Shown here in pieces: positions 1 to 64,000 of a stretch of DNA of 64,000 nt. The stretch's first letter is position 1. Each line of letters begins with the position of its first letter. Under the pieces are notes generated by a model. That model did not search any database. It was not told the origin of the DNA and saw nothing but the letters and a program-made list of their open reading frames with translations. Both the position numbers and the translations under genes were made by a program. The stretch lies in assembly GCA_005400705.1 (NCBI GenBank), contig GCA_005400705.1_4079.1. The stretch is one strand, 5' to 3'. Origin of the DNA: Escherichia coli (lineage in GTDB: Bacteria > Pseudomonadota > Gammaproteobacteria > Enterobacterales > Enterobacteriaceae).

Positions 1-440
1 TTGTTTTCAGTAAAAATGGCAACATAATATGCGTGGTTAATAACTTGCTTCATCCCAGCATCAATAACTTCCTGTGGAATATGATCAGTAACATCCAACC
101 AATCAAGGTTAGATGATGCAATATCTGGAGTACTGAATTTGTCAAATCTAGTTGAGCCACAAACTAGCACTCTATCATCATTTGTCAAAGCCACTGTGCT
201 AGTCTGCATATTAGAACTGAATGATTTAACATTACTAATGTTAGACTTGTACCAACCCTTATCAGCAGCACCCACCGTGAATCCGGTTCCCATTGATCCA
301 CTTGTACTTGTACCATAAGCCCACATCTCACCACTATATGTTAGTGCCATACAGTGGCTTCCATTTGCTTGGAAATCCTTTATACCAGTGGGAGCAACCA
401 CTGTATTCCCATAATCAAACATTCTAACAAAAGGTAACAT
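1..440 (-). CDS. RCC1-like repeat protein paralog (partial, C-terminus beyond left edge)
   Basis: ATG at 438-440 on minus strand encodes MLPFVRMFDYGN, identical to the four paralogs to the right; frame open to position 1. Confidence 0.6.
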   Translation of the reverse strand, partial: MLPFVRMFDYGNTVVAPTGIKDFQANGSHCMALTYSGEMWAYGTSTSGSMGTGFTVGAADKGWYKSNISNVKSFSSNMQTSTVALTNDDRVLVCGSTRFDKFSTPDIASSNLDWLDVTDHIPQEVIDAGMKQVINHAYYVAIFTEN

Positions 441-473
441 AACTAAAATCTCCATATAATAATTATAATGTAT

Positions 474-511
474 TTACAAAAAAATACCAGTACATATTTC
501 AGTACTGGTAT
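474..511 (-). terminator. Rho-independent terminator downstream of CDS 516-1688
   Basis: Inverted repeat ataccagtac/gtactggtat (484-511) followed on minus strand by a T-run (plus A-run 475-483). Confidence 0.5.
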
Positions 512-515
512 AATG

Positions 516-1688
516 TTATGGTAAAATAATAGCTTGTAACGAACTCATACCCAATGTTGGGACACTCGCCTGTGGTGCTGGTGCATTCACTTTTGGTGAT
601 GAAACCGCATAAGTCATTCCTGTACCCAAATCTGGATCAAAAACTACAGAACAATAATCCCCATTGTATATAAGTCCATTAGTATATCCTTGTGCACTTT
701 GAATGCATTTCGTGAACGTACCAATGTCAGTAGTGGCATTTATTAAGTTCCTCCCACGGTAGCCACAGGTGTATATGAAATTATCAACACCTATGTACAT
801 ACTCGCAGAACCAGAAGAACTACATAGATAAGACATATAAGCACGCATGTTTTTAGGAGCAACTGACAATGTACCAGCATAGAATTTATTATTCATACTC
901 GAAATATCACCATCACCCAAAGCACCAAAACTCCCCCAACCAGTACCATAATATCTCTTATCACTCAAGAATATAATACAGTTGTTATTACACATCTTGA
1001 CTTGATATATCAATGAAGGATCAACCCCAGGGAATGATTCAGTGTATGTTAGAACAGCCAGATCAGTACTAGCATTACATTGATGATATGTATTAGTACC
1101 AGCGGACAATATTGTACCATCAACTAATAGAATCCTCGAAGTGCCAGTACCAGCAATACAAGCAACAGCATTACCTGTATATATTTGTCTGAAAGTAAAG
1201 AAACCAACAGTCTTACTCCCCTGTCCACTCCAACCAGTATTATCAACACCACATGCCCATACTGAACCATCTTGCATGATCATCATTACACCATAGCGTT
1301 CTATCGAAATATAGACAATCTTCGTAGTATCAACTGCACTAAATCTAGAAGTTATATCAGTCCAAACCTTTACACTCACCGCCGTCGCACCGAAAGTAGG
1401 ATCTTCCCCTGCTATCATTATCCTACCATTGTTAGTCAGATACATTGTCTGACTATAACCAGTACTACAAAACTTAACACTATCAGTCTCTGGAACTTTT
1501 AACCACTCGTTGTAACGTGTTACGTTAGTGTTATTACCTAACTGATAATAGTTATTCATCCCAGATACATATAACACACCATCCTTTATTAAACTATAAG
1601 TCGCACTATAGTCACTACAGGTATAACGTGTACCCACAGGTCGCTCAACGACGTTCCCATAATCAAACATTCTAACAAAAGGTAACAT
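516..1688 (-). CDS. RCC1-like repeat (beta-propeller) protein paralog
   Basis: 390 aa ORF; N-terminus MLPFVRMFDYGN; repeated G-x-N-x-x-G-x-LG-x-G-like motifs (YVSGMNNYYQLGNN, YYGTGWGSFGALGDGD); SD upstream. Confidence 0.7.
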   Translation of the reverse strand: MLPFVRMFDYGNVVERPVGTRYTCSDYSATYSLIKDGVLYVSGMNNYYQLGNNTNVTRYNEWLKVPETDSVKFCSTGYSQTMYLTNNGRIMIAGEDPTFGATAVSVKVWTDITSRFSAVDTTKIVYISIERYGVMMIMQDGSVWACGVDNTGWSGQGSKTVGFFTFRQIYTGNAVACIAGTGTSRILLVDGTILSAGTNTYHQCNASTDLAVLTYTESFPGVDPSLIYQVKMCNNNCIIFLSDKRYYGTGWGSFGALGDGDISSMNNKFYAGTLSVAPKNMRAYMSYLCSSSGSASMYIGVDNFIYTCGYRGRNLINATTDIGTFTKCIQSAQGYTNGLIYNGDYCSVVFDPDLGTGMTYAVSSPKVNAPAPQASVPTLGMSSLQAIILP

Positions 1689-1724
1689 AATTAAATCTCC
1701 AAAATTAAAATAATTAGATAGTAT

Positions 1725-1761
1725 TTACAAAAAATACCAGTACATATTTCAGTACTGGTAT
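1725..1761 (-). terminator. Rho-independent terminator downstream of CDS 1769-2911
   Basis: Inverted repeat ataccagtac/gtactggtat with 8 nt loop, T-run on minus strand. Confidence 0.5.
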
Positions 1762-9416: not shown

Positions 9417-9693
9417 TTAAACACAAGTAGACAGGGGAAGCTCCTAGTGAACAACCTTTATGTACAGGCGAATTGTTAAAATTCAGCCTGGACAAATGCG
9501 ATCACTAGGATTCTCCCCAGGCTAAACCCCGTAATCATAGGTAGTCATAAGTAATCATATATAAACATTTATATGAGCACCGTAGAATCACAGAATGATT
9601 ATATATGATTCAGTACTGATTAGTATAGACAAGATTGCTCAAGAATGCACGGAAATGTGTGTGAATGATTCAGTACTGATATCCCACTAAGTA

Positions 9694-9720
9694 GGCAGAG
9701 GAAGTCTGCCGTACTTTTTA
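9694..9720 (+). terminator. Terminator-like hairpin
   Basis: ggcag-aggaagt-ctgcc followed by gtacttttt. Confidence 0.4.
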
Positions 9721-9826
9721 GTTTCCAAGCTCCTTTTCCATTTTTCAAATTACATCAAATGTAATCAAAAGTAATCACGCAATGATTAGTACTGAATTAT
9801 TACTTTCACCTTAATTACAATTACCC

Positions 9827-9846
9827 TTTTACCCTTCGGGGTAAAA
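9827..9846 (+). other. Perfect 8 bp stem with UUCG tetraloop
   Basis: ttttaccc-ttcg-gggtaaaa; no T-run after it. Confidence 0.5.
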
Positions 9847-10054
9847 TTCCATTACCCCTTGAGGCTCCAGCAAAAAGTTGGTTAGTACTCCATCCTAAAT
9901 CTCGATCCTAAAAATTTTGGAGTACCTATGAAATAAAAGTTGGATCTTCGAAAGTTGAAATTTACGTTGGGACGTTTATGATTTGTGGGATATAATGATG
10001 TTTGTAGTCGGGTAGTTCTCAAGAATATCAGTACTGAATGATGAAAGAAAGCTA

Positions 10055-10082
10055 TTGACTTTATGATTCAGTACTGTATAAT
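10055..10082 (+). promoter_or_regulatory. Sigma70-like promoter with no ORF downstream
   Basis: TTGACT (10055-10060), 16 nt spacer containing CAGTACTG, TATAAT (10077-10082), then gttttacat; following 150 bp non-coding and ends in a T-run near 10190. Confidence 0.45.
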
Positions 10083-10420
10083 GTTTTACATAGAGAGATG
10101 AGTTGCCGCAAACAATTCATTCACTCTACTTCCTGTCGTGAGACAGTACAGAAAGATAGTTCCTCCTATGGGTGGTACATCTTTTAGAACCTCTTTTTTC
10201 GTAATATGAACAGTACTGATATTAACAGAATGGTGTCAGTACTGATTTTAATTTAATGCATTATGCCACCAGCACAAGCTGGTGGATTCCCTCTAACAGT
10301 ATTCAGTACTACATGATGGTCTTCATCCTCCTAGGGTAACATAGTGAGGGCTATGATGGCAGTACTGAATACTCCCTTTCAAAAGATAGATCTATGGTAT
10401 AGTACTGACGGATTTTGGGC

Positions 10421-10600
10421 GTAGTTACCCTGGATGGATTTTGGACGTAGATATGTCTAGCCCTCCAGAAGTCTGGAAGTAAAGATGGCTATCCATCTAG
10501 ACGGCTAAACGGCTAGATTTCTGGATGGCTGGATGGCTAGACGTTTGGACGGCTAAACGGCTAGATGGTTACACGTCTGGAAGTATAGACGGCTAAATCA
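10421..10600. repeat. Iteron-like cluster of short direct repeats
   Basis: gacggctaaacggctagat x2, gtctggaagta x2, ggattttggRcgtag x2, ctggatgg x3, ggctag x4 within 180 bp. Confidence 0.6.
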
Positions 10601-11220
10601 AAATTTTATTTTGTTTTTTCCAATAGTTCCCCTACCGCGTGGGGATAGTTTCCCCGCAGTATCTGGAGTTAGATTTTTCTGAATCTGGAATCATTATCTT
10701 ATAAACTGGGGGCAATGTCAACCGCCTGGACGGATATTTTTAAAAATTTTTTCAGTACTGAATTTTGGGCGTAACTATGCACCCGGTGGGCTTGAGTCTT
10801 TCTCGACTTGATGGAACTATTATACAGTACTGGAAAAATAAAGCAATACCCTGGAAGCAAAAAAGTTTTAATTAATTTGCTTGCTATCCTGGGCCGGACT
10901 ATGGTACTATATTTCAGTACTGAGAAAGTGCGTTTACCTGCTAGGGTGCGGGAGTGTATCCTTTTTTTATATCTTGAATTTTGGGCGTAATTCCGCACCC
11001 TCTGGGGTTTCCGCTTTCTCGCGTCTATGTAGTAATTATACGCTTTTTCAGGATCAAGTCAATACCTAAAAACAAAATAATTGAAAATAATTTAACGCGT
11101 TTAAACGGCCCGTAAAGCCCTGGAATGATTGGAATGGTGCAAATGTATAGCTTAGGTGTATTAATGCGTTAGAATGCGTCTGAGGCCGTTTTACGGGGTA
11201 TAGGGATGATTTGGTGGATT

Positions 11221-11310
11221 GATTCAGTACTGAATGATAGTACTACTATATAGAAAGATAGTTCCCCTGAATGGTTGCAGTACTGAATGATAGTTCCCCT
11301 ATATAGAAAG
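11221..11310. repeat. Two direct repeats of about 45 bp (cagtactgaatgatag...tatatagaaag)
   Basis: Near-identical tandem copies immediately upstream of the first PeSL-type promoter. Confidence 0.5.
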
Positions 11311-11340
11311 AAAACTATTTTAAAAGTATTTGTAGAAAGT

Positions 11341-11402
11341 ACTTGCAAACTAAGTTTAACGGCGTATAATGTTTTACATCGAGAGCGGGAACACTTCCCG
11401 CT
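11341..11402 (+). promoter_or_regulatory. PeSL-type cassette: sigma70-like promoter plus 5' stem-loop
   Basis: aAGTACTTGCAaact, TATAAT at 11365-11370, gttttacatc, hairpin agcgggaa-cac-ttcccgct (11384-11402). Confidence 0.6.
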
Positions 11403-11425
11403 ACATATTACGAGAGATTAAAACG

Positions 11426-14203: not shown

Positions 14204-14491
14204 ATGAGCAAAGTAATTAACTATACAGTACTAAGCAAGTCATTATCTATTAGCCAGTGCACCGATGGTTTTTGGCTGTACGATGAAACGCGTGGCATGA
14301 ATTTAGCTATGCGGGAGAAAACTGCTGAGGCGGCGTATTTACAAGCCCTGGAATACTACCAGGAACGTTTAAAGGAAGTAGAAAACAATTATCAAAATTT
14401 AAAAGAGAAAGTAGATAATTTCGTTTGTCAATTCGTTGACGATGACGAGGAAGACGGGCACTACTGCAACCGTTGCGGATCTTACAATTAA
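14204..14491 (+). CDS. Hypothetical protein with C-terminal Cys pair (HYCNRCGSYN)
   Basis: Track ORF 14174-14491 trimmed to ATG 14204 (MSKVINYTV); 95 aa. Confidence 0.6.
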   Translation: MSKVINYTVLSKSLSISQCTDGFWLYDETRGMNLAMREKTAEAAYLQALEYYQERLKEVENNYQNLKEKVDNFVCQFVDDDEEDGHYCNRCGSYN

Positions 14492-14554
14492 GTACTTGCA
14501 ATTAGTTTTCAGTACTGTATAATGGTTTACATCAAAGGGAGAAATGGTTCTCCC
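14490..14554 (+). promoter_or_regulatory. PeSL-type cassette
   Basis: agtacTTGCAAttagttttcAGTACTgTATAAT, hairpin gggagaa-atgg-ttctccc. Confidence 0.6.
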
Positions 14555-52552: not shown

Positions 52553-53035
52553 ATGTCCAAAGACCTATCATTTAGCAATGCACAAAAAATCGCACAAAAT
52601 ATCATTAAACTTCATAAGTTCCTTTTAACAGTTAAAGAGAATATAATTCTCCCACGATGCACACTTTATGCGTACAAAAATTATTTGTCAATGAATAGCA
52701 ATTTGTTGCATACTACAGATGAGAATTTCTGTGGTATTCGTGTACTTGACGATGCACCAACAGGGGATTTTATCTCATATTGTTTCCATACATCTGATAG
52801 TTTTAAGTACTATCATCCTAGATTTAATGATGATGAATATGAATATGACACATTTAATGTTAGATCAGAAGAAGAATTCTTCCAGTACAGTACTTTGTAC
52901 AATGAGAGAATCGTGTTTAGTTCTACAATTTTTACAGTACTTAAAGATGAACTCAATGACGCAGATGATAGATTCTATATGGATTTAAACTTCGTAGATG
53001 AAATCATTGAGTACATGGAGAAAAATGGTCTATGA
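52553..53035 (+). CDS. Family C protein
   Basis: 160 aa; core EEEFFQYSTLYNE. Confidence 0.65.
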   Translation: MSKDLSFSNAQKIAQNIIKLHKFLLTVKENIILPRCTLYAYKNYLSMNSNLLHTTDENFCGIRVLDDAPTGDFISYCFHTSDSFKYYHPRFNDDEYEYDTFNVRSEEEFFQYSTLYNERIVFSSTIFTVLKDELNDADDRFYMDLNFVDEIIEYMEKNGL

Positions 53036-53514
53036 TTACAACAGAATATGATTACGATGGTGTTTTAGAATTTGCATCTAACATTCATCGCATTGCAAAG
53101 GAGTTCAGAAGTCCCCAACCTTTCGGTGGAATGCCTTTTGGTGGAATGTTCCAATATGACCAATTCAGTTCAACCAAAGGAAGACTTGCCTTTAAAAATA
53201 ATAAGGGCAATCAAGTATATGCTGAGTTCTTTGACGATAATGACTTTCACTACAGAGCTGAATATATTTCATATTGTCAAGGGTCTGATTTGAAGATTAA
53301 CATTGATACATTTAGAGATTCAGTGTTTATCCCTTATAGTGAGTTAGTTTTCATGACAGAAGAAATGTACTTCCAAGGGTCTTGTATTCATGATGCAAAA
53401 GTACTTAATGCTATATTACTTTATGGTGCACTACTTCATCATTACAAATACAAACAACGATTCTTTATAGATTTAGTTGTATACCATCAATGCGTGGATT
53501 ATTTGAATGCATAA
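53032..53514 (+). CDS. Family C protein
   Basis: 160 aa; core EEMYFQGSCIHD. Confidence 0.65.
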   Translation: MITTEYDYDGVLEFASNIHRIAKEFRSPQPFGGMPFGGMFQYDQFSSTKGRLAFKNNKGNQVYAEFFDDNDFHYRAEYISYCQGSDLKINIDTFRDSVFIPYSELVFMTEEMYFQGSCIHDAKVLNAILLYGALLHHYKYKQRFFIDLVVYHQCVDYLNA

Positions 53515-53869
53515 TACAACAACAATTCAGTACATGACGGATGGCAATGATTGCTTTGCTTCAAGATATGAATTCATCAAGAACCATTTCGTAACCTATA
53601 TCCCTGAATATAATCAGTTTTATCTACAGATTTACCAAAATGATTCATATATGAATGAGATATATTCTGAAATAAAAATCCCTGATTATAGTACTTTATC
53701 AGAAGAGGAATTGTTTCAGGAGAGCACTGTCAATACTGAAGATGTGTACGAACTAATGGAATACCAGAAGGTACTTAAATATTTCCATGAAGTTCAGGAT
53801 ATACAAATGGATAGTGTTAAAACGTGGAATTATAACACATACGAGGTAAATTATGTTCGAAATGATTAA
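53507..53869 (+). CDS. Family C protein
   Basis: 120 aa; core EELFQESTVNTE. Confidence 0.65.
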   Translation: MHNTTTIQYMTDGNDCFASRYEFIKNHFVTYIPEYNQFYLQIYQNDSYMNEIYSEIKIPDYSTLSEEELFQESTVNTEDVYELMEYQKVLKYFHEVQDIQMDSVKTWNYNTYEVNYVRND

Positions 53870-54266
53870 AATTATGCAACGATGCATTGTTGACCAACAT
53901 GGAATATATGGATATAGTTTAAGTGCAGCTATTGACAAAAACAAAACAACCTATGTAAGATATAATGCAGTACTTGGATTTGATATATTCATTGATGCTA
54001 ACAATAAAATCAAACAAGCTAAGGATGTGTCTATAATGACCCCTGACGAGTTATTTCAGTACAGCTTAGTTCTGCCCACCTGTATTGATTTACAACGCCT
54101 AGGAGCTATACAGAAGGTTTTACGCGAACATAAAGTACAACCAAATAAAATTACACACATCCCAGAAACATTCTACAAACCAATAGAAGTAGAAACACCT
54201 GATTATATGTTAAGTGATGATGAGTTCTACAAGAAACACTTCCCTGGTAAAGTTTGGAGAGAATAA
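53853..54266 (+). CDS. Family C protein
   Basis: 137 aa; core DELFQYSLVLP. Confidence 0.65.
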   Translation: MFEMIKIMQRCIVDQHGIYGYSLSAAIDKNKTTYVRYNAVLGFDIFIDANNKIKQAKDVSIMTPDELFQYSLVLPTCIDLQRLGAIQKVLREHKVQPNKITHIPETFYKPIEVETPDYMLSDDEFYKKHFPGKVWRE

Positions 54267-54748
54267 TGAACAGAAAGTACAGAGAAACTATGAAGTTCGC
54301 TAAGGAGTGTTTAGAGACAGTTGATTTCATTTTCGATAACAAAGACTCATTGGGTCGCCACTTCGTAATTACAAAGAAAGAAGATAAGAGATACAAATGT
54401 CAACGATTAGGATACAGTATTGAGTTCTCCTTAATGATTGACGGAATGATAAACTCCTTATATGAATGTGGTAAGACTGATTACATTTCATTTAGATCAT
54501 GGAGTGAAGGTATCATGTTCTTGAGAACAAATGGAGTTATATATCCTTTTATTGATGATTTATCAGAAGAAAGTTACTTTCAAAATACTTTAATTTACAC
54601 AGAAAAAGAACTCAAGATGCTATTCATTATGTCGTACTTTAAAAAGTACTGCAAATTTAAATCATTAGCTTTTGAGATTTCTGCAATGAAAGTATTCATT
54701 AAAAATGTAAAAGAATTAAAGAGGATTTACGATGTACATAGAAAATGA
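54254..54748 (+). CDS. Family C protein
   Basis: 164 aa; core EESYFQNTLIYTE. Confidence 0.65.
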   Translation: MERIMNRKYRETMKFAKECLETVDFIFDNKDSLGRHFVITKKEDKRYKCQRLGYSIEFSLMIDGMINSLYECGKTDYISFRSWSEGIMFLRTNGVIYPFIDDLSEESYFQNTLIYTEKELKMLFIMSYFKKYCKFKSLAFEISAMKVFIKNVKELKRIYDVHRK

Positions 54749-55274
54749 TAATGTAAAATGCATTACTGACATTTGTATAAAATTAATGAAAATTTTCATT
54801 AACCCAAAATACAAGACTCGTTCTTTACGTCATAACATTGATGATCATTGTGTAATTACTATTCTAGGTAGTATGCTTGATGTAAAATACGATGGTAAAT
54901 TGTTATTCGGTGTCCGAGAAGAGAAGATAGATGATGCATTCTTTTCCTGTAAAGATAAATTTGAACCTTCTGATTATAAAGTAATTATTCGTGATGATAG
55001 CATCTACATTAGTAGTGATTATTCAAATTACTTCGATAAAATATACACTGAAAACGTTGACTACCATTATGAAATGATAGATTTACCAGTAACAGACATT
55101 GATATGGAGAGAATCAAATTTTCATTATCAGATAATGAGTACTTAGGTATACAAACATATTATTCACTACAAGGAAAGATTCCACCTGCTATGTATATAA
55201 GGATTGAGATTGGTAATGTATTCAATGATAAGGTTATATCAATTGCTGATAAAATATTGAGGGTTGAATTATGA
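54732..55274 (+). CDS. Hypothetical protein (degenerate family C)
   Basis: 180 aa ORF in array, no FQ core. Confidence 0.5.
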   Translation: MYIENDNVKCITDICIKLMKIFINPKYKTRSLRHNIDDHCVITILGSMLDVKYDGKLLFGVREEKIDDAFFSCKDKFEPSDYKVIIRDDSIYISSDYSNYFDKIYTENVDYHYEMIDLPVTDIDMERIKFSLSDNEYLGIQTYYSLQGKIPPAMYIRIEIGNVFNDKVISIADKILRVEL

Positions 55275-55834
55275 ATATCAATGATTACCAATTTCATAGG
55301 CTTGAATTTCGTCATTGTGTTGCATTTGCAAAAACATTGATGTGCATCATTGACACTCTTTCATCCAAACAATTTCGTAAGGATAATGATTTATTTCTGA
55401 AAAAAGGTCGTGTAACATCAACTGATATCGGTATTGAACTATTTGTTGATATCAGTGTTGATACCGGAGACAGTACAAGGGTTGGTTGTATAGGTCATAT
55501 TGGTACACATTGCTTCACATGGAATCCAAATACAAGTCAAGTGCGAATTGATTATAGAAATTCACGTTGGGTTGATCTTAGTACTGAATCAGATTTAGAA
55601 TCAGCTATGTTCCAGCTAAGTTTAATTCATAATCCTAATGAACTTCTTTACATTATTACTTTCAGTTATCTGTTACAAAACTACGATAATCCATCAGGGT
55701 TTTTCATGGAATCGGATATAGAAGAAATTATGGCAGTGTTTCCTAGTTTAAAGGATATTCTGGAAGAAAAAGATTTCTATGAAGACTTCAGAGATTTATA
55801 CGACATGCACTTGGAGTTATTTAAGAATGGATAA
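55271..55834 (+). CDS. Family C protein
   Basis: 187 aa; core ESAMFQLSLIHN. Confidence 0.65.
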   Translation: MNINDYQFHRLEFRHCVAFAKTLMCIIDTLSSKQFRKDNDLFLKKGRVTSTDIGIELFVDISVDTGDSTRVGCIGHIGTHCFTWNPNTSQVRIDYRNSRWVDLSTESDLESAMFQLSLIHNPNELLYIITFSYLLQNYDNPSGFFMESDIEEIMAVFPSLKDILEEKDFYEDFRDLYDMHLELFKNG

Positions 55835-56345
55835 AGATGATATTCTAATTAGACTAATTAATAGTTTAATAAAGTTCTCAAATAATGATGTCGATACATA
55901 CAAAGTAGGGGATATTGAATTTAAATCATTTGGTATGTACGGTGAGGATAAAACATATTATGCGTCAATGAAATTTCAAGATTTTCACGAGATGTTAATA
56001 TCGTTATCATATGAAGATGTTGATCCAAGATGGAGTTCCAGTATTTCACTATCGAGAATGGTAATTCGTAGTAAGCATCGTTATATTTCGTCAAAGAATA
56101 CTCCTAACTTGATTAATATTGTGTTGAATGAAAATACAAATCCCCTATCTAAACATGATATCGTACCGTTAACCGATGAAGTTCTTTTTCAATTGAGTAC
56201 CATTTGTGATGAAGATGTGATATCATGTATGAAAATTTATGAGAAGGTTGGGAGTGATATTCCCATGAACTATTACCTAACTATAGATGGAACGTACCTT
56301 CGAGATGAGGTTCTAGCGTACATTGACAGTGTTTTACCAAAATAA
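55827..56345 (+). CDS. Family C protein
   Basis: Track ORF 55779-56345 trimmed to ATG 55827 (MDKDDILIRL); core DEVLFQLSTICDE. Confidence 0.6.
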   Translation: MDKDDILIRLINSLIKFSNNDVDTYKVGDIEFKSFGMYGEDKTYYASMKFQDFHEMLISLSYEDVDPRWSSSISLSRMVIRSKHRYISSKNTPNLINIVLNENTNPLSKHDIVPLTDEVLFQLSTICDEDVISCMKIYEKVGSDIPMNYYLTIDGTYLRDEVLAYIDSVLPK

Positions 56346-56368
56346 AGACCCGTATGGGTCTTTTTGTG
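56346..56368 (+). terminator. Rho-independent terminator inside the family C array
   Basis: agaccc-gtat-gggtct then ttttgtgttt. Confidence 0.6.
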
Positions 56369-56375
56369 TTTATGG

Positions 56376-56404
56376 CTTTACAAGAGCATTCAGGTGTGTT
56401 ATAC
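56376..56404 (+). promoter_or_regulatory. Internal sigma70-like promoter
   Basis: TTTACA 56376-56381, 17 nt, TATACT 56399-56404; SD ggagg before ATG 56433. Confidence 0.4.
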
Positions 56405-56432
56405 TTGATTTTAAATAGAGTTGGAGGAATCT

Positions 56433-56999
56433 ATGAGTACTGAATTAATTAAAGAAGTCACATTACTTCTGAAGCATTGTTTTAAGTTCATTCCTGATAC
56501 TGGTTCCCGCCAGTACATTAAAGTCAATGAGAAATATAACATCAATATCCTTGCATCCGAAACTGCAAGCAGTTATGCTAACATTGAGTTGGATTCTGAA
56601 GAAAAATATACAGTATTACAAATCATATCAGATGTACAACGTAAACAAGATTATCGTTCTTCATTTTACAACGATCATCTGTGTGTTTGCTCAAACTTCA
56701 GTGAGAATAAAATTGTGTATACGAATTTATACACACATGAAGTGATTGATACATATAATTATAAAATTTCATCTGATGAATACAATGTTCTAATGTTCAA
56801 CGCAAACCTTTTGTATGATGCCAGTACTGTACGCTGTTTAGAGTTAGCATATAAAATTCCAAAGATCATGGAAAGAAAAGATTTGATTCACTTTAAAACT
56901 ATTTTAAAATACAGTACAAAAGAATTAGAGGATTTAGTACAGGCTCTTAAGAATTTCATTAATGAACATGTACCTGTTAAATTCGAGGATGCACAATGA
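56433..56999 (+). CDS. Family C-like protein (degenerate core)
   Basis: Track ORF trimmed to ATG 56433 (MSTELIKE) after SD ggagg; DEYNVLMFNANLLYD. Confidence 0.55.
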   Translation: MSTELIKEVTLLLKHCFKFIPDTGSRQYIKVNEKYNINILASETASSYANIELDSEEKYTVLQIISDVQRKQDYRSSFYNDHLCVCSNFSENKIVYTNLYTHEVIDTYNYKISSDEYNVLMFNANLLYDASTVRCLELAYKIPKIMERKDLIHFKTILKYSTKELEDLVQALKNFINEHVPVKFEDAQ

Positions 57000-57580
57000 A
57001 CCATATCAGAACTAAAATTTTGAGACTCATGCATGACATTGCAGAACTTTCAGAGATTCATGACATTACGGAAATTGTTGAATTTGATAATTATCGACTG
57101 AAAATTGAAAACAAATCCAAACATCGTTTTGGTTCAGTTCAGTTGGATGTATATAAAACTTATGAATTTTCTAAAAAAATTAAAAGTTCATGGGATACGA
57201 TTACTATGTACATTCGCACATCCAGAAATCGTGAACGTATTGGTTCTATTTCTTATAATATGGTATTTGCGAATGCATTACATGAAAAAATGAATAAAAT
57301 TGTAGAATCTAATTTCAGTGAAGATGATGGTTTTATTGGTTTGGAAGTTCCACCAGAATTAGACCAAAGTGAAGATATTCGAGATGCATTCATTTTCCAG
57401 AAATCATTGTTGGACAATTACAAAGAATTCGAGTACTTAATGCTTTGTTACGATACTGCAAAAGTTCTTGATTGTGGTGAACTAGTTATGTACAATGATT
57501 TTATCAATTGCAAGACTGATGTTCTGAATACACTACTTCAAAATATAGAATCTGTTAAGGAAAAATATGAACGCTTATAG
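56996..57580 (+). CDS. Family C protein
   Basis: 194 aa; core RDAFIFQKSLLDN. Confidence 0.65.
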   Translation: MNHIRTKILRLMHDIAELSEIHDITEIVEFDNYRLKIENKSKHRFGSVQLDVYKTYEFSKKIKSSWDTITMYIRTSRNRERIGSISYNMVFANALHEKMNKIVESNFSEDDGFIGLEVPPELDQSEDIRDAFIFQKSLLDNYKEFEYLMLCYDTAKVLDCGELVMYNDFINCKTDVLNTLLQNIESVKEKYERL

Positions 57581-58145
57581 TTATATGACAGAACGCCATC
57601 AGTTATTATATGATATCAGTAAAAAAATGCTATCAATTGTTGGTAGTGCGAAAGAAATTGAAAAACAATCTCTCATCCGTGATGTAGCAATTTCATCTAA
57701 ATGTTGGTCAAATGAATATTACGACCACGGTATTCTTACTATTTCTGGGGCCAGAAATATTTGTATTGTAAAAAATAAAAGTAAAAGTAATGAAGAGTGT
57801 GAGATTAGAACCGATATACAAATTAAGGATGATGGAAGTTTTTCACATCACCCATTCCATATTAGTACTGTTGGTGTTTTATATAATATTAAAGTTCTAT
57901 TCGGTGATGAAGAGTATGTGTTAAAAGCTATCAATCCAGATTCAAGTACAGTTGAAGAAGAACTGTTCCAGATGAGCACTGTTATACCTGAAGAGGTTCT
58001 TAGTACTGTTATTTTTTGTAGTTTAATTTATCATGAATACAAAAAGAACCAGTTCGATTTCCACATGTTAGGAACGTACATCTTCAATAATTTGAATGTA
58101 GATCGTTTAAAAGCATTAAATTCAGCAATGGATAAGGTGCTATAA
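57567..58145 (+). CDS. Family C protein
   Basis: 192 aa; core EEELFQMSTVIPE. Confidence 0.65.
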   Translation: MNAYSYMTERHQLLYDISKKMLSIVGSAKEIEKQSLIRDVAISSKCWSNEYYDHGILTISGARNICIVKNKSKSNEECEIRTDIQIKDDGSFSHHPFHISTVGVLYNIKVLFGDEEYVLKAINPDSSTVEEELFQMSTVIPEEVLSTVIFCSLIYHEYKKNQFDFHMLGTYIFNNLNVDRLKALNSAMDKVL

Positions 58146-58573
58146 TGACAAGAGATGATTGTTTGTACATATGGGATATAATTGAAACTACACTTTCAAA
58201 TCCAGAAAATTATAAAACACAAAAAAGACAACGACACAAAACATGGATAGATTTGTTCGTTGAGGACATACACGCAGTGACTATTTGGGATTCACCGAGG
58301 ACATCAGCATCTACTCTGTTGGACAATGAATGCATTGATTGTATTAATTCCACTTTTCATCTCCACGGTACTACAATTTTTGGTACATTTCTGGATATTG
58401 AAAGTAAAGATGATATTGATTCACTTGCGTTACAATACCAAGTACTGTATAATACTAAATTAATTTACGATTTAGTACTAGCTTCTTATGTGTATAAATT
58501 AATGATGAAATATAATCATATTTCTGTTTCAGTTTATACTAAGGATATTCTTTCATTAAGAGACAAAACATGA
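58145..58573 (+). CDS. Family C-like protein (degenerate core)
   Basis: 142 aa; SLALQYQVLYN. Confidence 0.5.
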   Translation: MTRDDCLYIWDIIETTLSNPENYKTQKRQRHKTWIDLFVEDIHAVTIWDSPRTSASTLLDNECIDCINSTFHLHGTTIFGTFLDIESKDDIDSLALQYQVLYNTKLIYDLVLASYVYKLMMKYNHISVSVYTKDILSLRDKT

Positions 58574-59079
58574 GTTTATTAAATGCACGCGAATTGGTTG
58601 AGATGTATGAGATTTTGTCTTCATATAAAAATTCTCATGGAGATGTGATTCTCGACAAAAAGTTCCATGTCAGTGTTGAAAATATATCAAATATAGATAT
58701 GATTTCTTTGGTGGAAAGTAATAAGTCAGGTCTTGAACGCGATATCATGCGTTTGATTTATATTCCCAAACCATCATATACTAATGATAGTTCAATTAGT
58801 AATGAGACATTCATGTATAGTCCTGGTACGGATTCTACTATAGTATCGCTGTCCAATAAATCAATGGGTACTTTCCAATTCATCTATACCAGTACTGATA
58901 ACATTGAAGAAATTGAATTTCAAAACAATACATTAAGTCCATGTAGTAGTGTTATAACCTTTATGTCATATCTATGGTCAACTAAAACAAGTGCTGTTGT
59001 ATATAGTTCAAATTATACACAAGATAGTATTGTTGAATCATATAAAGTTCTAAAGGAATACTATGAAAATAACAAATGA
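58570..59079 (+). CDS. Family C protein
   Basis: 169 aa; core EEIEFQNNTLSP. Confidence 0.6.
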   Translation: MSLLNARELVEMYEILSSYKNSHGDVILDKKFHVSVENISNIDMISLVESNKSGLERDIMRLIYIPKPSYTNDSSISNETFMYSPGTDSTIVSLSNKSMGTFQFIYTSTDNIEEIEFQNNTLSPCSSVITFMSYLWSTKTSAVVYSSNYTQDSIVESYKVLKEYYENNK

Positions 59080-59644
59080 TTTTATTAAAAGTGTAGTACA
59101 CCCTATGCTTAGTATTATGAAAAAAATACAGAATCTACCGGAAGATAACGATTACAAGTTTAATCGTTTTGATTCAGATGTGTTTTGTATTGAAATTGAA
59201 ATTAATAACAATCGCAATTTACATTTAAAATTCAAAGAATCGTCAAGTCCGTACTACAACTTTGATATGAATTTTAAAATAGATACTGACATTGAAGAAA
59301 ACGTAATATCAAATCATACTAGCAAAAATGGTTTTATGCATAGAACTACTATGTACAATAATAAAAATAGTATTATATCTAAATGGAATCATCAATTCAC
59401 TAAAATTTGTGAAATTGTATATAGTGATTTTGGTGAAGAGAATTACTTTCAGTTAAGTACAATTCATGAACTTCCACCGTATGATTATGTTAAAACATGG
59501 TTTGATATTCATAATATAATTGATGATGCAATCAAACTTCCATTTGGTGTGTCAATATCATATACTGCTCCTAAAACATTTGTTTTTACTGAAGATATGA
59601 TTATGAAAAAGATATGGGCAATTATCCCACTTATGATGGATTAA
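59063..59644 (+). CDS. Family C protein
   Basis: 193 aa; core EENYFQLSTIHE. Confidence 0.65.
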   Translation: MKITNDFIKSVVHPMLSIMKKIQNLPEDNDYKFNRFDSDVFCIEIEINNNRNLHLKFKESSSPYYNFDMNFKIDTDIEENVISNHTSKNGFMHRTTMYNNKNSIISKWNHQFTKICEIVYSDFGEENYFQLSTIHELPPYDYVKTWFDIHNIIDDAIKLPFGVSISYTAPKTFVFTEDMIMKKIWAIIPLMMD

Positions 59645-59658
59645 ATTCGTACCAGGGG

Positions 59659-59687
59659 TTGACTCTGGTATTTTTGTATGATACATT
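59659..59687 (+). promoter_or_regulatory. Candidate internal promoter
   Basis: TTGACT 59659-59664, 17 nt, TACATT 59682-59687; overlapping inverted repeat accag/ctggt. Confidence 0.3.
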
Positions 59688-59705
59688 GTCCTAAAGGAGA
59701 ATTTT

Positions 59706-60257
59706 ATGAACTACAATCATGATCTTTTTACATTATGTGCATCCAAATGTGTTGATGGATGGACAGATAAAATCAATACCATAATTCATCGATATCTGGT
59801 CTTTAGTTCTCGTGCACGAAGTGAGGGGGCTATGGATTTCAAATATACACTATCTATTGATGGTGTAACTATCCATGCAGACGAAGAACGTCTGAGCATT
59901 AATTTGTATGATTCCTGTGTATTTGCTATTCACCAAAAGATGGGGAAAGGATGGGGTTGTAATAACATTAACTCAAAAGCTATCTTTTGGGTTGGTCACC
60001 ACCAGACAGTACTTGATCCTTCAATCAAATCTAATCTTTTATCCGATAATATGGTTTATGATTTATTGTACTCCGAAGAACAACATTTTCAGTTAAGTAC
60101 ATTACATGATCTGGCACAGTACGAGGATTGTTACAAAACATTAGAACTATGCCATTCCCTTGAACTTAAAGATAAATTGATACAAGTTTACCCTTCATTC
60201 TTTCATGAAGAAGTACAAAGTACACTAGATCATATTTTATATGGATACGATAAATGA
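59706..60257 (+). CDS. Family C protein
   Basis: 183 aa; core EEQHFQLSTLHD. Confidence 0.65.
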   Translation: MNYNHDLFTLCASKCVDGWTDKINTIIHRYLVFSSRARSEGAMDFKYTLSIDGVTIHADEERLSINLYDSCVFAIHQKMGKGWGCNNINSKAIFWVGHHQTVLDPSIKSNLLSDNMVYDLLYSEEQHFQLSTLHDLAQYEDCYKTLELCHSLELKDKLIQVYPSFFHEEVQSTLDHILYGYDK

Positions 60258-60856
60258 GAAAAAGTTATCAAGAAGCTATTGACTTAATTCGTGAAGTTAT
60301 CAAGGTGGCTCCTGCTGCTATTGAGTTCAAGAAGTCCATATACAAGAAGTATGGTTCAATGTCGAGTATGTGCTTTCAAAAGAAACGTAGAGCATTCACT
60401 ACCCAGTACTGGAATGATTCTATCATCCTGAGCAATGAGACTCAGCGTATTTTAACACTAGAATCTGAACCTAATGAGTACGGGGAAGGGAACATTTGTG
60501 TACCTGATTATGATGAAATTAACTTCAACTGCGGTGATTTTGAAACAACATTATTACTTCATGAGGGTTATCCAGAAGGTGATGTATTAGCTGAGTACAA
60601 TCCAAAAACTAAAATTCTCAAAAGAGGAATCCAGTTCACTATTAATAACAAAGATGATGTTCAAGCAGCACTGATGCAACTGAGTACAAGTGAACCTATC
60701 ACTATTAGTGTAGAAGAGTTATGGGGAATTATTTCAGTACTCAATGAGTGCTATAAAGTAAAATCATTGCGTAAACACAGCATTATATTACATACCAATA
60801 TGGCAAATATAAAATGTAAGCACATTCAAGAAATGGTGGTTCCAGATGGACTTTAA
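60254..60856 (+). CDS. Family C-like protein
   Basis: 200 aa; core QAALMQLSTSEP. Confidence 0.55.
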   Translation: MRKSYQEAIDLIREVIKVAPAAIEFKKSIYKKYGSMSSMCFQKKRRAFTTQYWNDSIILSNETQRILTLESEPNEYGEGNICVPDYDEINFNCGDFETTLLLHEGYPEGDVLAEYNPKTKILKRGIQFTINNKDDVQAALMQLSTSEPITISVEELWGIISVLNECYKVKSLRKHSIILHTNMANIKCKHIQEMVVPDGL

Positions 60857-61430
60857 AGAAATTGAAAGTAAATTAAAGTACTTCAAAGATATCAAACTTC
60901 TTTGGGAAAAGTATAAAGTTGATTACAATTTCAGTGATGATGACACTGTAAAAACAATTGAGATTAATATCAAAATCAAGTTCAAGAATAATAATTATGG
61001 TGAAGTAACCTTAAATCATACTGGTATATCACTCAAGGACTATGATGGTTCAACACTCGCATATTTTGACTTCACACCAGAACCAGGTGAAACACTACTT
61101 AGTGAGATAAATTCCTATGACATGGAAGTGTTCGGCGGGAATCCGTTACTGTTCCGACTTTCTGAAGATTGGAGTGAAGAATACTACACTTACAAAGATG
61201 GTGTAGTACTTGACATTAATGGTGAAGTTGTGAATGACTTGGAAGAACGCTTGTTCCAAGAATTGTGTGTTTCAAATACTTCATATGCATACAATCATAT
61301 CCTTGACATGTTTGATTTATATAGTAAAATAGATGCTGAAATGAATGCACATGGTATTCATTATCTTACAATCAACGACTATGCTCAACTTGAAACTGTA
61401 GTGAAAGCATTGACTAAAGTACTGAAATAG
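60846..61430 (+). CDS. Family C protein
   Basis: 194 aa; core EERLFQELCVSN. Confidence 0.6.
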   Translation: MDFKEIESKLKYFKDIKLLWEKYKVDYNFSDDDTVKTIEINIKIKFKNNNYGEVTLNHTGISLKDYDGSTLAYFDFTPEPGETLLSEINSYDMEVFGGNPLLFRLSEDWSEEYYTYKDGVVLDINGEVVNDLEERLFQELCVSNTSYAYNHILDMFDLYSKIDAEMNAHGIHYLTINDYAQLETVVKALTKVLK

Positions 61431-61439
61431 GAATGAAAT

Positions 61440-61853
61440 ATGAAACTGTATCATGCGAGTACTGTAAAAATTGATAACTTTTATATCCCGTATGGTGGTC
61501 TTCATATGGGAGGTAAACACAGTGCTTTGGAAGCTGCATTACGCAAGCTCAGAAGTCCACTGAACGTAGTAGACGCATGTACAGTATACTTGCATACCTT
61601 AGAAGTTGATGTTGATAACGTGCTTCTGTGTGAAGATTTAGGCAGTGATGATGAGTGGCGTTCACTTATTGAGAATTGCACTGCTCAAGGTTATGATGCT
61701 GTTCAGTACAAAAATGATTACGAGCCAGACAATGTTCCTAGTTTTATGATTTGGGATGCATCTAAAGTTCGCATCATTGAAGTTGATGCTATGCATATGG
61801 ATGAAGCTGAAATGATTATCGAAGATTTTCTTGATGAATATGAAGGTGTATAA
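61440..61853 (+). CDS. Hypothetical protein
   Basis: 137 aa ORF without family core. Confidence 0.5.
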   Translation: MKLYHASTVKIDNFYIPYGGLHMGGKHSALEAALRKLRSPLNVVDACTVYLHTLEVDVDNVLLCEDLGSDDEWRSLIENCTAQGYDAVQYKNDYEPDNVPSFMIWDASKVRIIEVDAMHMDEAEMIIEDFLDEYEGV

Positions 61854-62371
61854 TGATTGAACCTATGACAGTACTAGCACGTACTAAATTATTATTGAGG
61901 ATTGGTGAGATATTCACTGATATTTTGTACAGTGGGATTGATATACTTGAATTAGGCATTAAGCAACCGTGGGAATTAACCAAGTTCTCTGCGTTCCATC
62001 GTTTATCCTATAAAGGGGAAACGGTTCTTGACTTGAACCCCAAAGCCAGATTCATGGACTATGCAGCTTTATATGGAACATGTGGAGGAATAACAAATGA
62101 TTTCAAAGAAATTAAAGTTCAAACAGCGTCACATGAATTTAATGATTTATTATATCCAGAATTTAAGTTAACAGAAGAATCATTCTTCCAGTACTCATTG
62201 ATTTTAAAAGATCTTAATGATTTAGAGTACTACAAAGAGTTAGTAGATATTTTTATTAATACACGACTTTCAAAAGATATTGTGATATTCTGGTATACAG
62301 AGCATGTTACGGAGGAATTGCTTACTGAATTTCTTCTAAATATGACAGCTATAAAGGAGAAGTTATGTTAG
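61853..62371 (+). CDS. Family C protein
   Basis: 172 aa; core EESFFQYSLILKD. Confidence 0.65.
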   Translation: MIEPMTVLARTKLLLRIGEIFTDILYSGIDILELGIKQPWELTKFSAFHRLSYKGETVLDLNPKARFMDYAALYGTCGGITNDFKEIKVQTASHEFNDLLYPEFKLTEESFFQYSLILKDLNDLEYYKELVDIFINTRLSKDIVIFWYTEHVTEELLTEFLLNMTAIKEKLC

Positions 62372-62838
62372 ATATTTTAGGAAACATCGACACTGCAAAT
62401 TATTTTATTCAAGATGCATTGTTTAATACAGTACAACAAGGTTTAGAAGTTCACCACAATGTTTATCAGGGTGATGGATATTTTGTTGATATTATCGAGA
62501 CACGTAAAAATACATTTAATGTTAACATTACGACGCTTGGAAGACAGAACATTGCACGAATTTTAGTAAGTAAAGATGAAATAGTACTGAGATACAGTGC
62601 TAAGTTTATGTTGACTTATAAGAAAAAAACTGATATGTTCAGTACTAATTTATTTGATGAGCCATTTGACCTTGAAGATATTGAAGCTACTTTCTTTACT
62701 CAAAGTACTATGGTAAAATACACTGATGTTCAATTTTCTGCTGATGTAATGTCAGAAACATTACAAATGATCAAGGTATTATTTTATGCATTTGAGCAAT
62801 TTAGAGAAGAAAGAAACAAGGTTAACAACCACAGATGA
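62365..62838 (+). CDS. Family C-like protein
   Basis: 157 aa; core EATFFTQSTMVKY. Confidence 0.55.
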   Translation: MLDILGNIDTANYFIQDALFNTVQQGLEVHHNVYQGDGYFVDIIETRKNTFNVNITTLGRQNIARILVSKDEIVLRYSAKFMLTYKKKTDMFSTNLFDEPFDLEDIEATFFTQSTMVKYTDVQFSADVMSETLQMIKVLFYAFEQFREERNKVNNHR

Positions 62839-63199
62839 ACTAATAGAGGCGATCACTAAGGAGTCAAAATACCATAAAGGTATTCGTCTATACTTTATAG
62901 ATACTGGTTCGATGGAAGGTACATACATTTATGGTTCACAATCGTTGTCTTATGATGCAATGCCAAATAAACATGTTAAAATCTTTTTAGGTTCAAGTAA
63001 TAAAACTTTCTTGACAATTAATGATAGCAGTGTTATTATGAATTCGTTGGGTCATGATAAGGTGGAAATTGATCTAAACACGCTGGAGGATATTGATTTT
63101 TTTCAATACGAGTGTTTAGGTGTTGACTTACATGGCATTAGTAGCGATATGATAAAATCATTAATCAAATATTTCGAAGGTGTTCATAAATGTATCTAA
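62786..63199 (+). CDS. Family C-like protein (start uncertain)
   Basis: 137 aa; core DIDFFQYECLGVD; 52 nt overlap with previous ORF. Confidence 0.5.
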   Translation: MHLSNLEKKETRLTTTDELIEAITKESKYHKGIRLYFIDTGSMEGTYIYGSQSLSYDAMPNKHVKIFLGSSNKTFLTINDSSVIMNSLGHDKVEIDLNTLEDIDFFQYECLGVDLHGISSDMIKSLIKYFEGVHKCI

Positions 63200-63687
63200 C
63201 TAAATCAATGAAAAATTCATTTGATAAAATCAAGAGTTGTCTTGATGGAGAAAATATTACAAGTGTTACACAAACTGCTGACCAAATTCAAAGCAGTTCA
63301 AGTGATTGCACTGTTATTTTTGGTTTACATAGTCTGCGTTTATCAATAGTAAATAATATTGACAACACTGCTATTGTAATCACACCATGCAATATTCAAA
63401 ATGAGAATGGTGTATATCTTCATCACATGGGAACAGTATTTCACATTTTCAATTCAAACGAAAACATTGTTAAGGAATACAATACTCTTAATATTGATTC
63501 AGGTGAATTATTTCAAATGAGTACTTTGTACTCATGTAATTTTACAGATACTTCATGTATTTTGCCATTTTTCTTGGAAATTATTAAGAAAATGGAAAAT
63601 TTAAAACGTGAATACAATAAAGAAATGGTTCCTGAAGCTATATTAAATATTACTAATGCTATAGAGAAGTATAATGCAGTGACTTAA
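63190..63687 (+). CDS. Family C protein
   Basis: 165 aa; core GELFQMSTLYS. Confidence 0.65.
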   Translation: MYLTKSMKNSFDKIKSCLDGENITSVTQTADQIQSSSSDCTVIFGLHSLRLSIVNNIDNTAIVITPCNIQNENGVYLHHMGTVFHIFNSNENIVKEYNTLNIDSGELFQMSTLYSCNFTDTSCILPFFLEIIKKMENLKREYNKEMVPEAILNITNAIEKYNAVT

Positions 63688-63729
63688 TAAAAACGCACAT
63701 GGAGTGCATTAGAAGATCAAGGATAGATC

Positions 63730-64000
63730 ATGGAGATTAAAACTGTTGAAAATGGGAAAATTGATGACATTTTAGAGTTGGACGCATTCAAAGTTCATGA
63801 TATAATGTTTAATGTGAAGGACATTATTCAATGTCTATTTTTGTGTAGCAAGACAATGCATGATTTTTTTCACAACCCAAATACTAACGTTTTTATACTA
63901 ACAATCAGTACTGAAAACTCGTTTATCATGGGTATGCCTATGAGTACAAATGAACAATATATTGATTGTGTTATTCGTAATAACGATAGTATTACGCCAC
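63730..64000 (+). CDS. Hypothetical protein (partial, continues beyond right edge)
   Basis: ATG 63730 (MEIKTVENGKIDD...) open to end of window, hand-translated with no stop. Confidence 0.5.
   Translation, partial: MEIKTVENGKIDDILELDAFKVHDIMFNVKDIIQCLFLCSKTMHDFFHNPNTNVFILTISTENSFIMGMPMSTNEQYIDCVIRNNDSITP

Follow-up and report, generated by a model that had tools for sequence, protein, structure and literature searches.

Dedicated readers of short DNA words are known from several bacterial systems. The Chi octamer (GCTGGTGG, read by RecBCD), KOPS (read by FtsK), and the uptake sequences of Neisseria and Haemophilus are asymmetric 8-12-mers that occur far above chance, at about one copy per 0.4-1 kb, fall within genes in every frame, have a strand skew tied to replication, and mark self DNA for the reader. 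The subject here is a palindromic hexamer, AGTACT, in a 64,000-base stretch of DNA (hereafter, the window) from an assembly labelled Escherichia coli (GCA_005400705.1, contig GCA_005400705.1_4079.1). The window is placed by megablast among the Asteriusvirus jumbo coliphages (121Q, PBECO4, phAPEC6, and CRJP21) at 90-96% identity.

Palindromes scattered over the chromosome and bound by a DNA-organising dimer include the SlmA-binding sites (SBS), the Noc-binding sites (NBS), and the parS sites of ParB, with tens of 12-16-bp copies per genome. The site of the nucleoid-occlusion factor SlmA is a 12-bp palindrome (GTGAGTACTCAC) that has GT..AC flanks and contains an AGTACT core. GATC, which serves as a chromosome-wide mark in the Dam/SeqA system, occurs near chance frequency genome-wide in E. 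coli. Among phages, Bacillus phage SPO1 has a long direct terminal repeat in which strong early promoters of the host type are crowded, and it encodes TF1, a DNA-binding protein that has preferred sites over these promoters and can shut them down; TF1 acts on hydroxymethyluracil DNA with a loose sequence preference. With regard to strand-oriented words, Meisel et al. reportedly found in 1992 that the EcoP15I sites (CAGCAG) of phage T7 all have one orientation, which is said to allow escape from type III restriction.

AGTACT is under positive selection at the DNA level. It is tentatively read here as the core site of a lineage-specific, probably phage-encoded factor that would use it as an operator at early promoters and as a genome-wide self-mark, a reading to which we assign a probability of about 0.4.

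Enrichment of AGTACT and selection at the DNA level

The window contains 278 copies of AGTACT, compared with 21.5 expected from base composition, 19.0 under a first-order Markov model, and 48.8 under a second-order Markov model. AGTACT ranks first among the 4096 hexamers (z = 32.8 under the second-order model), and the next ranks are taken by its own sub-words. The initial annotation had claimed, from hand counts, an excess of an order of magnitude or more, which was to be abandoned if it vanished under a second-order model. The word is 5.7-fold above that model and 14.6-fold above the first-order one, which is a stronger excess than had been stated. The counts themselves were closely reproduced, with 10-11 copies at 9601-10400 (9612 to 10361, plus 10401), 6 at 12481-13080 (7 when 12475 is included), and 5 at 45481-46080. 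The proposed spacing of one site per 80-120 bp applies only to such hot spots, the window mean being one per 230 bp, and two AGTACT-free blocks (Table 1) had been missed. The quoted sequence contexts are real, with 71 copies of CAGTACTG, 8 of TTCAGTACTGAA, and 12 of AAAAGTACTTGC, and either AGTACTgTATAAT or AGTACTggCATAAT is present in 14 promoter candidates.

The contrast with the usual depletion of palindromes in phages, to which attention had been drawn, is extreme. The runner-up palindrome reaches 2.7 times its expectation versus 14.6 times for AGTACT, 25 of the 64 palindromic hexamers have zero copies in the window, and GCGC is absent versus 43 copies expected. Sites under restriction avoidance are rarer than expected, which is the opposite of what was found for AGTACT.

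In the open reading frames (ORFs) of the window, which were called by a simple longest-ORF heuristic, the word occurs 75 times as AGT-ACT, 43 times as nAG-TAC-Tnn, and 73 times as nnA-GTA-CTn. Synonymous-codon shuffles within genes yield 21.6, 13.8, and 17.1 copies for the three frames (a 3-4-fold excess), and codon-order shuffles yield 11.7, 6.1, and 5.9 (6-12-fold). The complete record of a close relative, CRJP21 (OQ708376.1, 366,301 bp), was used as the reference for the window. In this genome, AGTACT is 3.2-3.8-fold above synonymous shuffles in early, middle, and late regions and in genes of either strand; the excess therefore extends to all three frames and both gene strands, as the initial annotation had proposed to check. 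The word is also conserved. Between the window and CRJP21, whose overall identity is 92.6%, 86% of AGTACT copies are retained, compared with 73% of frame-matched control hexamers and 75% of hexamers within 30 bp of a site, and in non-coding DNA the retention is 70 of 73 (96%) versus 76% for controls.

It is highly improbable that the excess is non-functional and stems from codon or dipeptide usage, repeat amplification, or biased repair or gene conversion, and this explanation has been largely refuted. Codon usage is indeed skewed to AGT, ACT, GTA, and TAC, synonymous shuffles give about twice as many copies as codon-order shuffles, and biased conversion would also mimic conservation. However, all frames and non-coding DNA are enriched, and the two kinds of shuffle exclude codon or dipeptide usage alone. 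When contexts of ±12 bp are compared, the 278 sites form 252 clusters, 232 of them singletons; an artefact of repeats or paralogues is excluded by these 232 unique contexts and by the unique contexts of all 42 copies of a related word, AGTACA, discussed below. Very-short-patch repair is known to create CCWGG, but a biased repair of this type was rejected for AGTACT. None of its 18 one-mismatch neighbours is clearly depleted (0.5-3.8 times expectation), and a repair that converts neighbours into AGTACT is therefore unlikely. In addition, the trait is stable across genera, its placement on promoters is position-specific, and the AGTACA domain has sharp edges.

The first and last 20,152 bp of CRJP21 are identical and form a direct terminal repeat, and repeats of 20.7-21.0 kb have been demonstrated experimentally for the phages Sharanji (PMC11895373) and fEgEco12 (PMC13070987). 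Across CRJP21, AGTACT occurs 1022 times versus 124 expected (893 times with the terminal repeat counted once), and every 5-kb bin has at least 5 copies (1.7 expected) except the two bins directly after the terminal repeat. Coding and intergenic DNA outside the repeat have similar densities (2.35 and 2.67 copies per kb), and the sites there show no relation to gene starts. Within the repeat, genes carry 4.6 copies per kb and intergenic stretches 10.6. In the window, the repeat holds 138 copies (6.9 per kb) and is the densest part of the genome. The spacing in CRJP21 is near random and slightly under-dispersed (coefficient of variation (CV) 0.93 vs. 1.00 ± 0.04), with a longest gap of 2.3 kb, and regular spacing was set aside as only marginal. 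The preferred context is hAGTACTd, with C at position -1 in 45-48% of sites and G in 5-9%. Flank information does not exceed 0.18 bit except at ±1 (0.3-0.4 bit), such that the site is a strict short palindrome without a flank requirement, as in restriction-modification systems.

The earlier proposal that the palindrome excess implies a DNA-level function is thus borne out by the frame excess, the conservation, the persistence across genera, and the promoter positions shared by two genera. The accompanying list of mechanisms (binding, modification or nicking, packaging, recombination) could be narrowed only in part: a packaging signal is unlikely, as about 310 kb carry the word at an even 2.4 copies per kb.

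AGTACT in the early promoters of the terminal repeat

The terminal repeat harbors 45 sigma-70-like promoter candidates, in which positions are counted from the first base of the -10 hexamer. AGTACT starts at -7/-8 in 14 candidates, at -27 in 9, at -30/-31 in 4, and at -17/-18 in 4, and rarely elsewhere. It is thus a dyad-symmetric site that overlaps the core promoter at fixed positions, as an operator does. In the commonest architecture, AGTAC/TTGCAA - 9 nt - AGTACTg/TATAAT (slashes mark the upstream edges of the -35 and -10 hexamers), two copies lie 20 bp apart, and a variant with 22 bp is also present (Table 1). AGTACT-bearing promoters are near consensus and need no activator.

The same arrangement is observed in Pectobacterium phage CBB, a phage of a different genus in which a structural protein is only about 37% identical. 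In the terminal repeat of CBB, AGTACT is found at -27 to -29 in 21 candidates and at -7 in 12. The flanks differ (gAGTACTt/TATAAT), so that the hexamer and its position are conserved and the surrounding sequence is not. The authors of the CBB genome described a "UP-like element" ahead of the -35 of RpoD-like promoters, which, judged by its position, is probably the AAAAGTAC stretch.

Promoter phasing favors a bound factor, for which a sequence-specific DNA-binding protein encoded by the phage is the likeliest candidate. The core promoter is bracketed by two copies, one abutting the upstream edge of the -35 and one abutting the -10, at a distance of 20-23 bp; they would lie on the same face of the helix, where occupancy would occlude RNA polymerase. 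Gating of early transcription by such a factor is favored because, at both positions, it would cover the polymerase-binding surface, and the bracketing copies may constitute an operator pair that shuts off or gates immediate-early transcription. The roughly one thousand further copies (about 2.4 per kb) would label the whole phage chromosome and concentrate the factor on phage DNA, and such a genome-wide self-mark might serve organisation, protection, or titration.

The initial annotation had given some AGTACT-bearing promoters the putative label PeSL-type, after the promoter-early stem-loop (PeSL) cassettes of T4-type phages, in which an early sigma-70 promoter is joined to a stem-loop and repeated between early genes. 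Repetition of early promoters was confirmed. The class of promoters in the window that clearly lies within a stem-loop (aaaaagggaTTGACTccggtcagtccctttgcTATTAT, four repeats) lacks AGTACT. Its -35, TTGACT, is inside a short stem-loop GGGA...TCCC with the form GGGA TTGACT ccgg TCAGTCCC, which also occurs in CBB.

The AGTACT-free blocks and the one-sided AGTACA domain

The two AGTACT-free blocks of the window differ in character. Block 1 lies inside an array of overlapping paralogous genes with an LGTNYQE-type motif, for which no Pfam match was found. Its lack of AGTACT is ordinary when compared with composition (1.2 copies expected) and highly unusual when compared with the local norm (about 11 expected at genome-wide density). 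The members of the array at 35.0-36.3 kb carry AGTACT, and those at 30.3-35.0 kb have none. Of the eight copies of TGTACT in block 1, about half fall in a Val-Leu codon pair that is conserved among the paralogues, and TGTACT exceeds synonymous shuffles only modestly (7 vs. 2.8). An opposite polarity on either side of an origin was considered and downgraded, as the TGTACT of block 1 is partly an artefact of this codon pair; the evidence for a reversed polarity in block 1 is weak.

Block 2 is strictly one-sided. Not one of its 70 GTAC is followed by T. Its 42 copies of AGTACA all lie on the coding (+) strand and are distributed over the three frames, each in a context of its own; 2 copies of AGTACC and 1 of AGTACG are also present, and there is no AGTAC on the minus strand. 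Composition predicts 3.7 copies of AGTACA (an 11-fold excess), and in CRJP21 the 41 copies of the equivalent domain compare with 13.4 ± 3.0 in synonymous shuffles (3-fold). Elsewhere, 75% of AGTAC are AGTACT, and the chance of finding 0 of 45 in block 2 is about 6e-28. The equivalent domain of phage Turkey3 contains 48 AGTACA, no AGTACT, and no TGTACT, with about 40% of the sites at non-homologous positions and with proteins that are 42-100% (on average about 75%) identical. The genes of block 2 are Asteriusvirus-specific and have no known function, and CBB lacks such a domain. Scans of the repeat, block, and island proteins against Pfam and PHROG revealed no function, and a promoter and terminator scan of 29-46 kb gave hits not above shuffles.

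Outside block 2, AGTACA and TGTACT are not enriched over synonymous shuffles (1.1-1.3-fold), and AGTACA keeps a residual excess at 44,480-64,000 (38 copies; 1.6-fold over synonymous shuffles in the CRJP21 equivalent). A polar word is expected to show strong strand bias. The genome-wide word is a palindrome whose one-sided relatives are not enriched, whereas in block 2 the ratio of AGTACA to TGTACT is 42:0. Third-codon-position skews are also unusual in the CRJP21 equivalents of both blocks, with A exceeding T in block 1 (+0.1 to +0.2 vs. -0.14 elsewhere; 20-35 kb of CRJP21 corresponds to 30-44.5 kb of the window) and G exceeding C in block 2 (+0.16 to +0.33 vs. about 0 elsewhere). These skews suggest a distinct mutational or replication regime, or a foreign origin. 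Evasion of type III restriction was rejected as a candidate, as CAGCAG, AGACC, and sites of that kind are not strictly confined to one strand.

A symmetric dimer is blind to the difference between AGTACA and TGTACT, which implies that the word is read in a strand- or direction-specific manner in block 2. As the main rival reading, it is conceivable, though rather unlikely, that the actual unit is a strand-specific 5'-AGTACW-3' read by a DNA-tracking or single-stranded-DNA-reading machine, of which the palindrome is the two-way form. Candidates are a primase start site, which would be unusually long, and a polar stop or loading signal for a helicase, nuclease, or translocase, similar to Chi or KOPS; block 2 would then be a deliberately one-way stretch adjoining the terminal repeat. 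Such a unit agrees with the one-sidedness of block 2 (42 AGTACA against no minus-strand AGTAC, at 3-fold over synonymous shuffles), with its occurrence in all frames and unique contexts, and with its maintenance in Turkey3 (48:0:0) despite the many non-homologous positions. The short and strict core with almost no flank information, the even genome-wide density with slight under-dispersion, and the third-position skews of both blocks are also in its favor. However, it leaves the fixed promoter positions of AGTACT in two genera unexplained, and the one-sided form is not generally preferred outside the 8-kb domain. A primase site on the opposite strand should be harmless, yet it is strictly absent from the domain; the reversed polarity of block 1 is weak and partly due to the Val-Leu pair; CBB is enriched without any one-sided domain; and the genome ends are already protected by true Chi sites. 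None of the models tested gives the reason for this sense of direction in block 2. An orientation-sensitive binder that acts as a monomer and occupies the palindrome as two back-to-back copies could reconcile the strand-specific unit with the phage-encoded factor.

The remaining features of the window are collected in Table 1. The ends of its terminal repeat were inferred by homology to the exact repeat of CRJP21. The whole repeat and both flanking unique ends lie inside the window, as expected for a concatemer junction or a circularly closed assembly. The + strand of the 20-kb repeat carries 10 Chi octamers, compared with about 0.1 expected by a rough estimate, and a back-to-back Chi pair (CCACCAGCACAAGCTGGTGG) is located about 580 bp from the inferred left terminus. 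With this orientation, RecBCD entering from either genome end would halt within about 0.6-1.4 kb. The terminal repeat of CBB likewise has 7 Chi on the + strand. Protection from RecBCD was rejected as a role for AGTACT, as the real Chi sites of the terminal repeat already provide it. Short direct repeats (GGCTAGACGG, GGCTAAACGG, and GGATGGCT) are present at 10,430-10,600 in the non-coding leader of the terminal repeat, about 750-900 bp from the inferred terminus, and could be a packaging or replication element.

A gene of the repeat with a DUF7249 domain has counterparts at 81-88% nucleotide identity in coliphages of 135-155 kb (Phapecoctavirus and Vequintavirinae) and in records labelled as Campylobacter or Acinetobacter phage, which indicates recent exchange among unrelated phage groups. 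According to one report (PMC7247149), the phAPEC6 homologues of the RCC1-repeat paralogues are virion proteins, and the capsids of phAPEC6 and 121Q contain a radiation-sensitive protein embedded in the DNA, seen as bubblegrams. Rfam and tRNA scans of the window found nothing.

Table 1. Coordinates of features in the 64,000-bp window (double-site promoters by the positions of the two AGTACT copies unless a range is given).
Feature	Position	Strand	Remarks
Right end of the unique genome	1-9,689		By alignment to CRJP21; 53 AGTACT within the first 9.4 kb
Four tandem RCC1-repeat paralogues, 375-390 aa	516-5,332	-	Pfam RCC1 in both scanned members
Non-coding AGTACT cluster	9612-10406		n = 11, about 14 per kb; straddles inferred left terminus 9690; many are TGATTCAGTACTGA
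Direct terminal repeat	9,690-29,683	+	Ends by homology
Gene of 92 aa, Pfam DUF7249	11,843-12,121		In terminal repeat
Double-site early promoter	14491..14523	+	AGTAC/TTGCAA (-35), ttagttttc, AGTACTg/TATAAT (-10)
Same 20-bp double-site architecture	15276/15296; 18899/18919
22-bp variant	17382/17404; 20235/20257; 27573/27595		AGTACTA/TTGACA ... AGTACTGG/CATAAT
Stem-loop promoter class	19,397; 22,783; 25,784; 28,229		Positions of -10 hexamers
Chi	10278, 16756, 20480, 20990, 21941, 22841, 24922, 26514, 28092, 28314	+
Chi	10266, 16694	-
Left part of the unique genome	29,684-64,000		By alignment to CRJP21
Tandem array of about 30 overlapping paralogous genes, 64-91 aa	29,751-36,256		(L)LGTNYQ(E/D) motif
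Block 1, AGTACT-free	30,295-35,041	+	Inside the paralogue array
Island between blocks	35,042-36,537	+	12 AGTACT in 1.5 kb, 8 per kb; same paralogue array
Block 2, one-sided domain	36,538-44,479	+	0 AGTACT, 0 GTACT
Region of returning AGTACT	44,480-64,000	+	71 sites, 3.6 per kb; tightly packed + strand genes

Lineage distribution, candidate readers, and comparison with known systems

The occurrence of AGTACT was compared among genomes as the ratio of observed copies to the first-order expectation, with relatives other than CRJP21 sampled across 20-50 kb each and E. coli represented by a single 50-kb sample. The excess is evident in the structural region of CRJP21 (82/12.6), E. coli phage A4 (86/12.4), Klebsiella phage RaK2 (76/10.4), Cronobacter phage GAP32 (90/12.5), Salmonella phage Munch (66/12.0), and Yersinia phage fHe-Yen9-04 (39/5.5), and the first 50 kb of CBB has 266 copies (count only). 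Five enterobacterial Rak2-like lineages are thus positive, at 5.5-7-fold where an expectation was computed. The non-enriched phages are distant relatives, namely Pseudomonas phage PA5oct (4/13.4) and Vibrio phage 2.275.O (4/6.1), and the unrelated coliphage tuntematon (4/5.4), a Phapecoctavirus that infects the same host and has one gene in common with the window. The sample of E. coli K-12 gives 3/4.8, and AGTACT is about 40-100 times denser per kb in the phage than in this host sample. The excess is a property of the enterobacterial Rak2-like phages as a lineage and does not simply follow host range. This lineage restriction, and the absence of the excess from an unrelated coliphage and from E. 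coli, favor a reader of the phage lineage over a general host effect. As a separate observation, GCGC is absent from every sampled AGTACT-rich relative and has normal frequency in PA5oct, the Vibrio phage, and tuntematon, such that GCGC absence and AGTACT excess travel together.

A protein of the Enterobacterales host that the phage exploits, either SlmA or RNA polymerase, is a very improbable reader. The positive phages all infect Enterobacterales and the negative relatives infect Pseudomonas or Vibrio, and AGTACT abuts promoter hexamers. However, tuntematon shows no enrichment in the same host, and SlmA-type flanks are avoided, with G at -1 in only 5-9% of sites and GTNAGTACTNAC in 1 of 893. 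The copy next to the -10 is not a canonical extended -10, the CBB form AGTACTT/TATAAT having no TG, and the intragenic copies in late genes have no promoter role. A SlmA decoy was rejected on the avoided flanks, and a tblastn search of the CRJP21 genome found no SlmA homologue.

It is also improbable, if less so, that AGTACT is the target of a phage methyltransferase or other base-modifying enzyme, as an epigenetic self-mark read by another factor, in which case AGTACA would be permanently modified on one strand. A strict 6-bp palindrome with little flank preference is typical of restriction-modification recognition, and AGTACT, at one copy per 360-420 bp, is about as dense as GATC is in E. 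coli. A C5 methylase is confirmed in CRJP21, and Dam-type and other methylases have been reported for CBB, Sharanji, and RaK2. On the other hand, no methyltransferase of AGTACT specificity was identified in this analysis. Methylation to 5-methylcytosine (5mC) in RaK2 has been reported in CpG context, and the C5 methylase (gp_442 in CRJP21) probably acts at CpG-containing sites in RaK2; AGTACT has no CpG. In addition, modification targets are normally not enriched, and the promoter phasing would still need a reader. In favor of the lineage-specific factor, ten restriction enzymes were reported to cut fEgEco12 DNA as predicted (PMC13070987), so that the DNA is not bulk-modified. Concerning the annotation of CRJP21, its GenBank product names are displaced relative to the genes and cannot be used as labels: the sigma-70-like factor is gp_504 and not the genes labelled sigma factor, and an HNH endonuclease carries the label "starvation-inducible DNA-binding protein".

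With regard to the lineage-specific factor, the enrichment, the selection at the DNA level, the conservation, the promoter phasing in two genera, and the restriction to one lineage are direct observations; that the reader is a phage-encoded repressor protein, and that the genome-wide copies are a self-mark, is what we infer from them. The strict 6-bp core, the small flank information, and the one-sided AGTACA block favor a short-site, strand-aware reader. Several points weigh against a conventional operator-binding protein. A symmetric dimer cannot explain an 8-kb domain with 42 AGTACA, no TGTACT, and no AGTACT. Operators are confined to regulatory DNA, whereas about 85% of AGTACT sites are intragenic, and it is not obvious what regulatory use a thousand repressor sites within genes would have. 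The low information beyond the hexamer is unlike typical operators of 12-16 bp and closer to the site of an enzyme, and 10.5-bp helical periodicity between sites was not seen outside the repeat. Duplication of promoter cassettes could account for part of the phasing. Finally, Pfam and PHROG scans of about 40 of the approximately 550 proteins (from the repeat, the blocks, and other regions) revealed no DNA-binding domain above threshold.

If such a factor exists, phages that delete palindromes and have unmodified DNA keep about a thousand copies of AGTACT for an unrecognised factor that reads phage DNA specifically, and a clade without a phage nucleus or bulk base modification gains a way to tell its own DNA from that of the host. 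The gating of immediate-early transcription in the terminal repeat, the identity of the proteins that lie within the packaged DNA of 121Q and phAPEC6, and the use of a polar sequence code by a virus now become testable. In practical terms, AGTACT is a one-line genomic signature of the clade, and its sites could be used to pull down the reader; ScaI would cut these genomes into many small fragments, and most common 6-cutters leave the 64-kb window uncut. The literature searched, including the genome papers of this clade, does not describe the enrichment, and we know of no polar sequence architecture like that of block 2 in any phage genome.

Compared with the systems described at the outset, AGTACT resembles Chi, KOPS, and the uptake sequences in its frequency far above chance and its presence within genes in all frames, and the 8-kb AGTACA domain is reminiscent of Chi and KOPS in its strand polarity. 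Unlike those asymmetric words, AGTACT is a 6-bp viral palindrome that also forms part of promoters, and it coexists with real Chi sites. It shares with the SlmA, Noc, and ParB sites the form of a palindrome scattered over the chromosome, but occurs as about a thousand hexamers and avoids the SlmA flanks. Like GATC, it is a short palindrome of similar density with local clusters at regulatory DNA; unlike GATC, it lies 8-15-fold above chance. A long direct terminal repeat rich in strong early promoters of the host type is shared with SPO1; TF1, with its loose preference, is not known to go with a thousand-copy palindromic word, and no HU-type protein was identified among the approximately 40 proteins scanned here. 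As with the EcoP15I sites of T7, every asymmetric copy is co-oriented over a long stretch (42 AGTACA), whereas the T7 sites are unenriched, AGTACA is 11-fold over composition, and the domain spans only 8 kb. None of these nearest known phenomena combines a palindromic hexamer, about a thousand copies, integration into promoters, and a domain of a one-sided variant, as AGTACT does.

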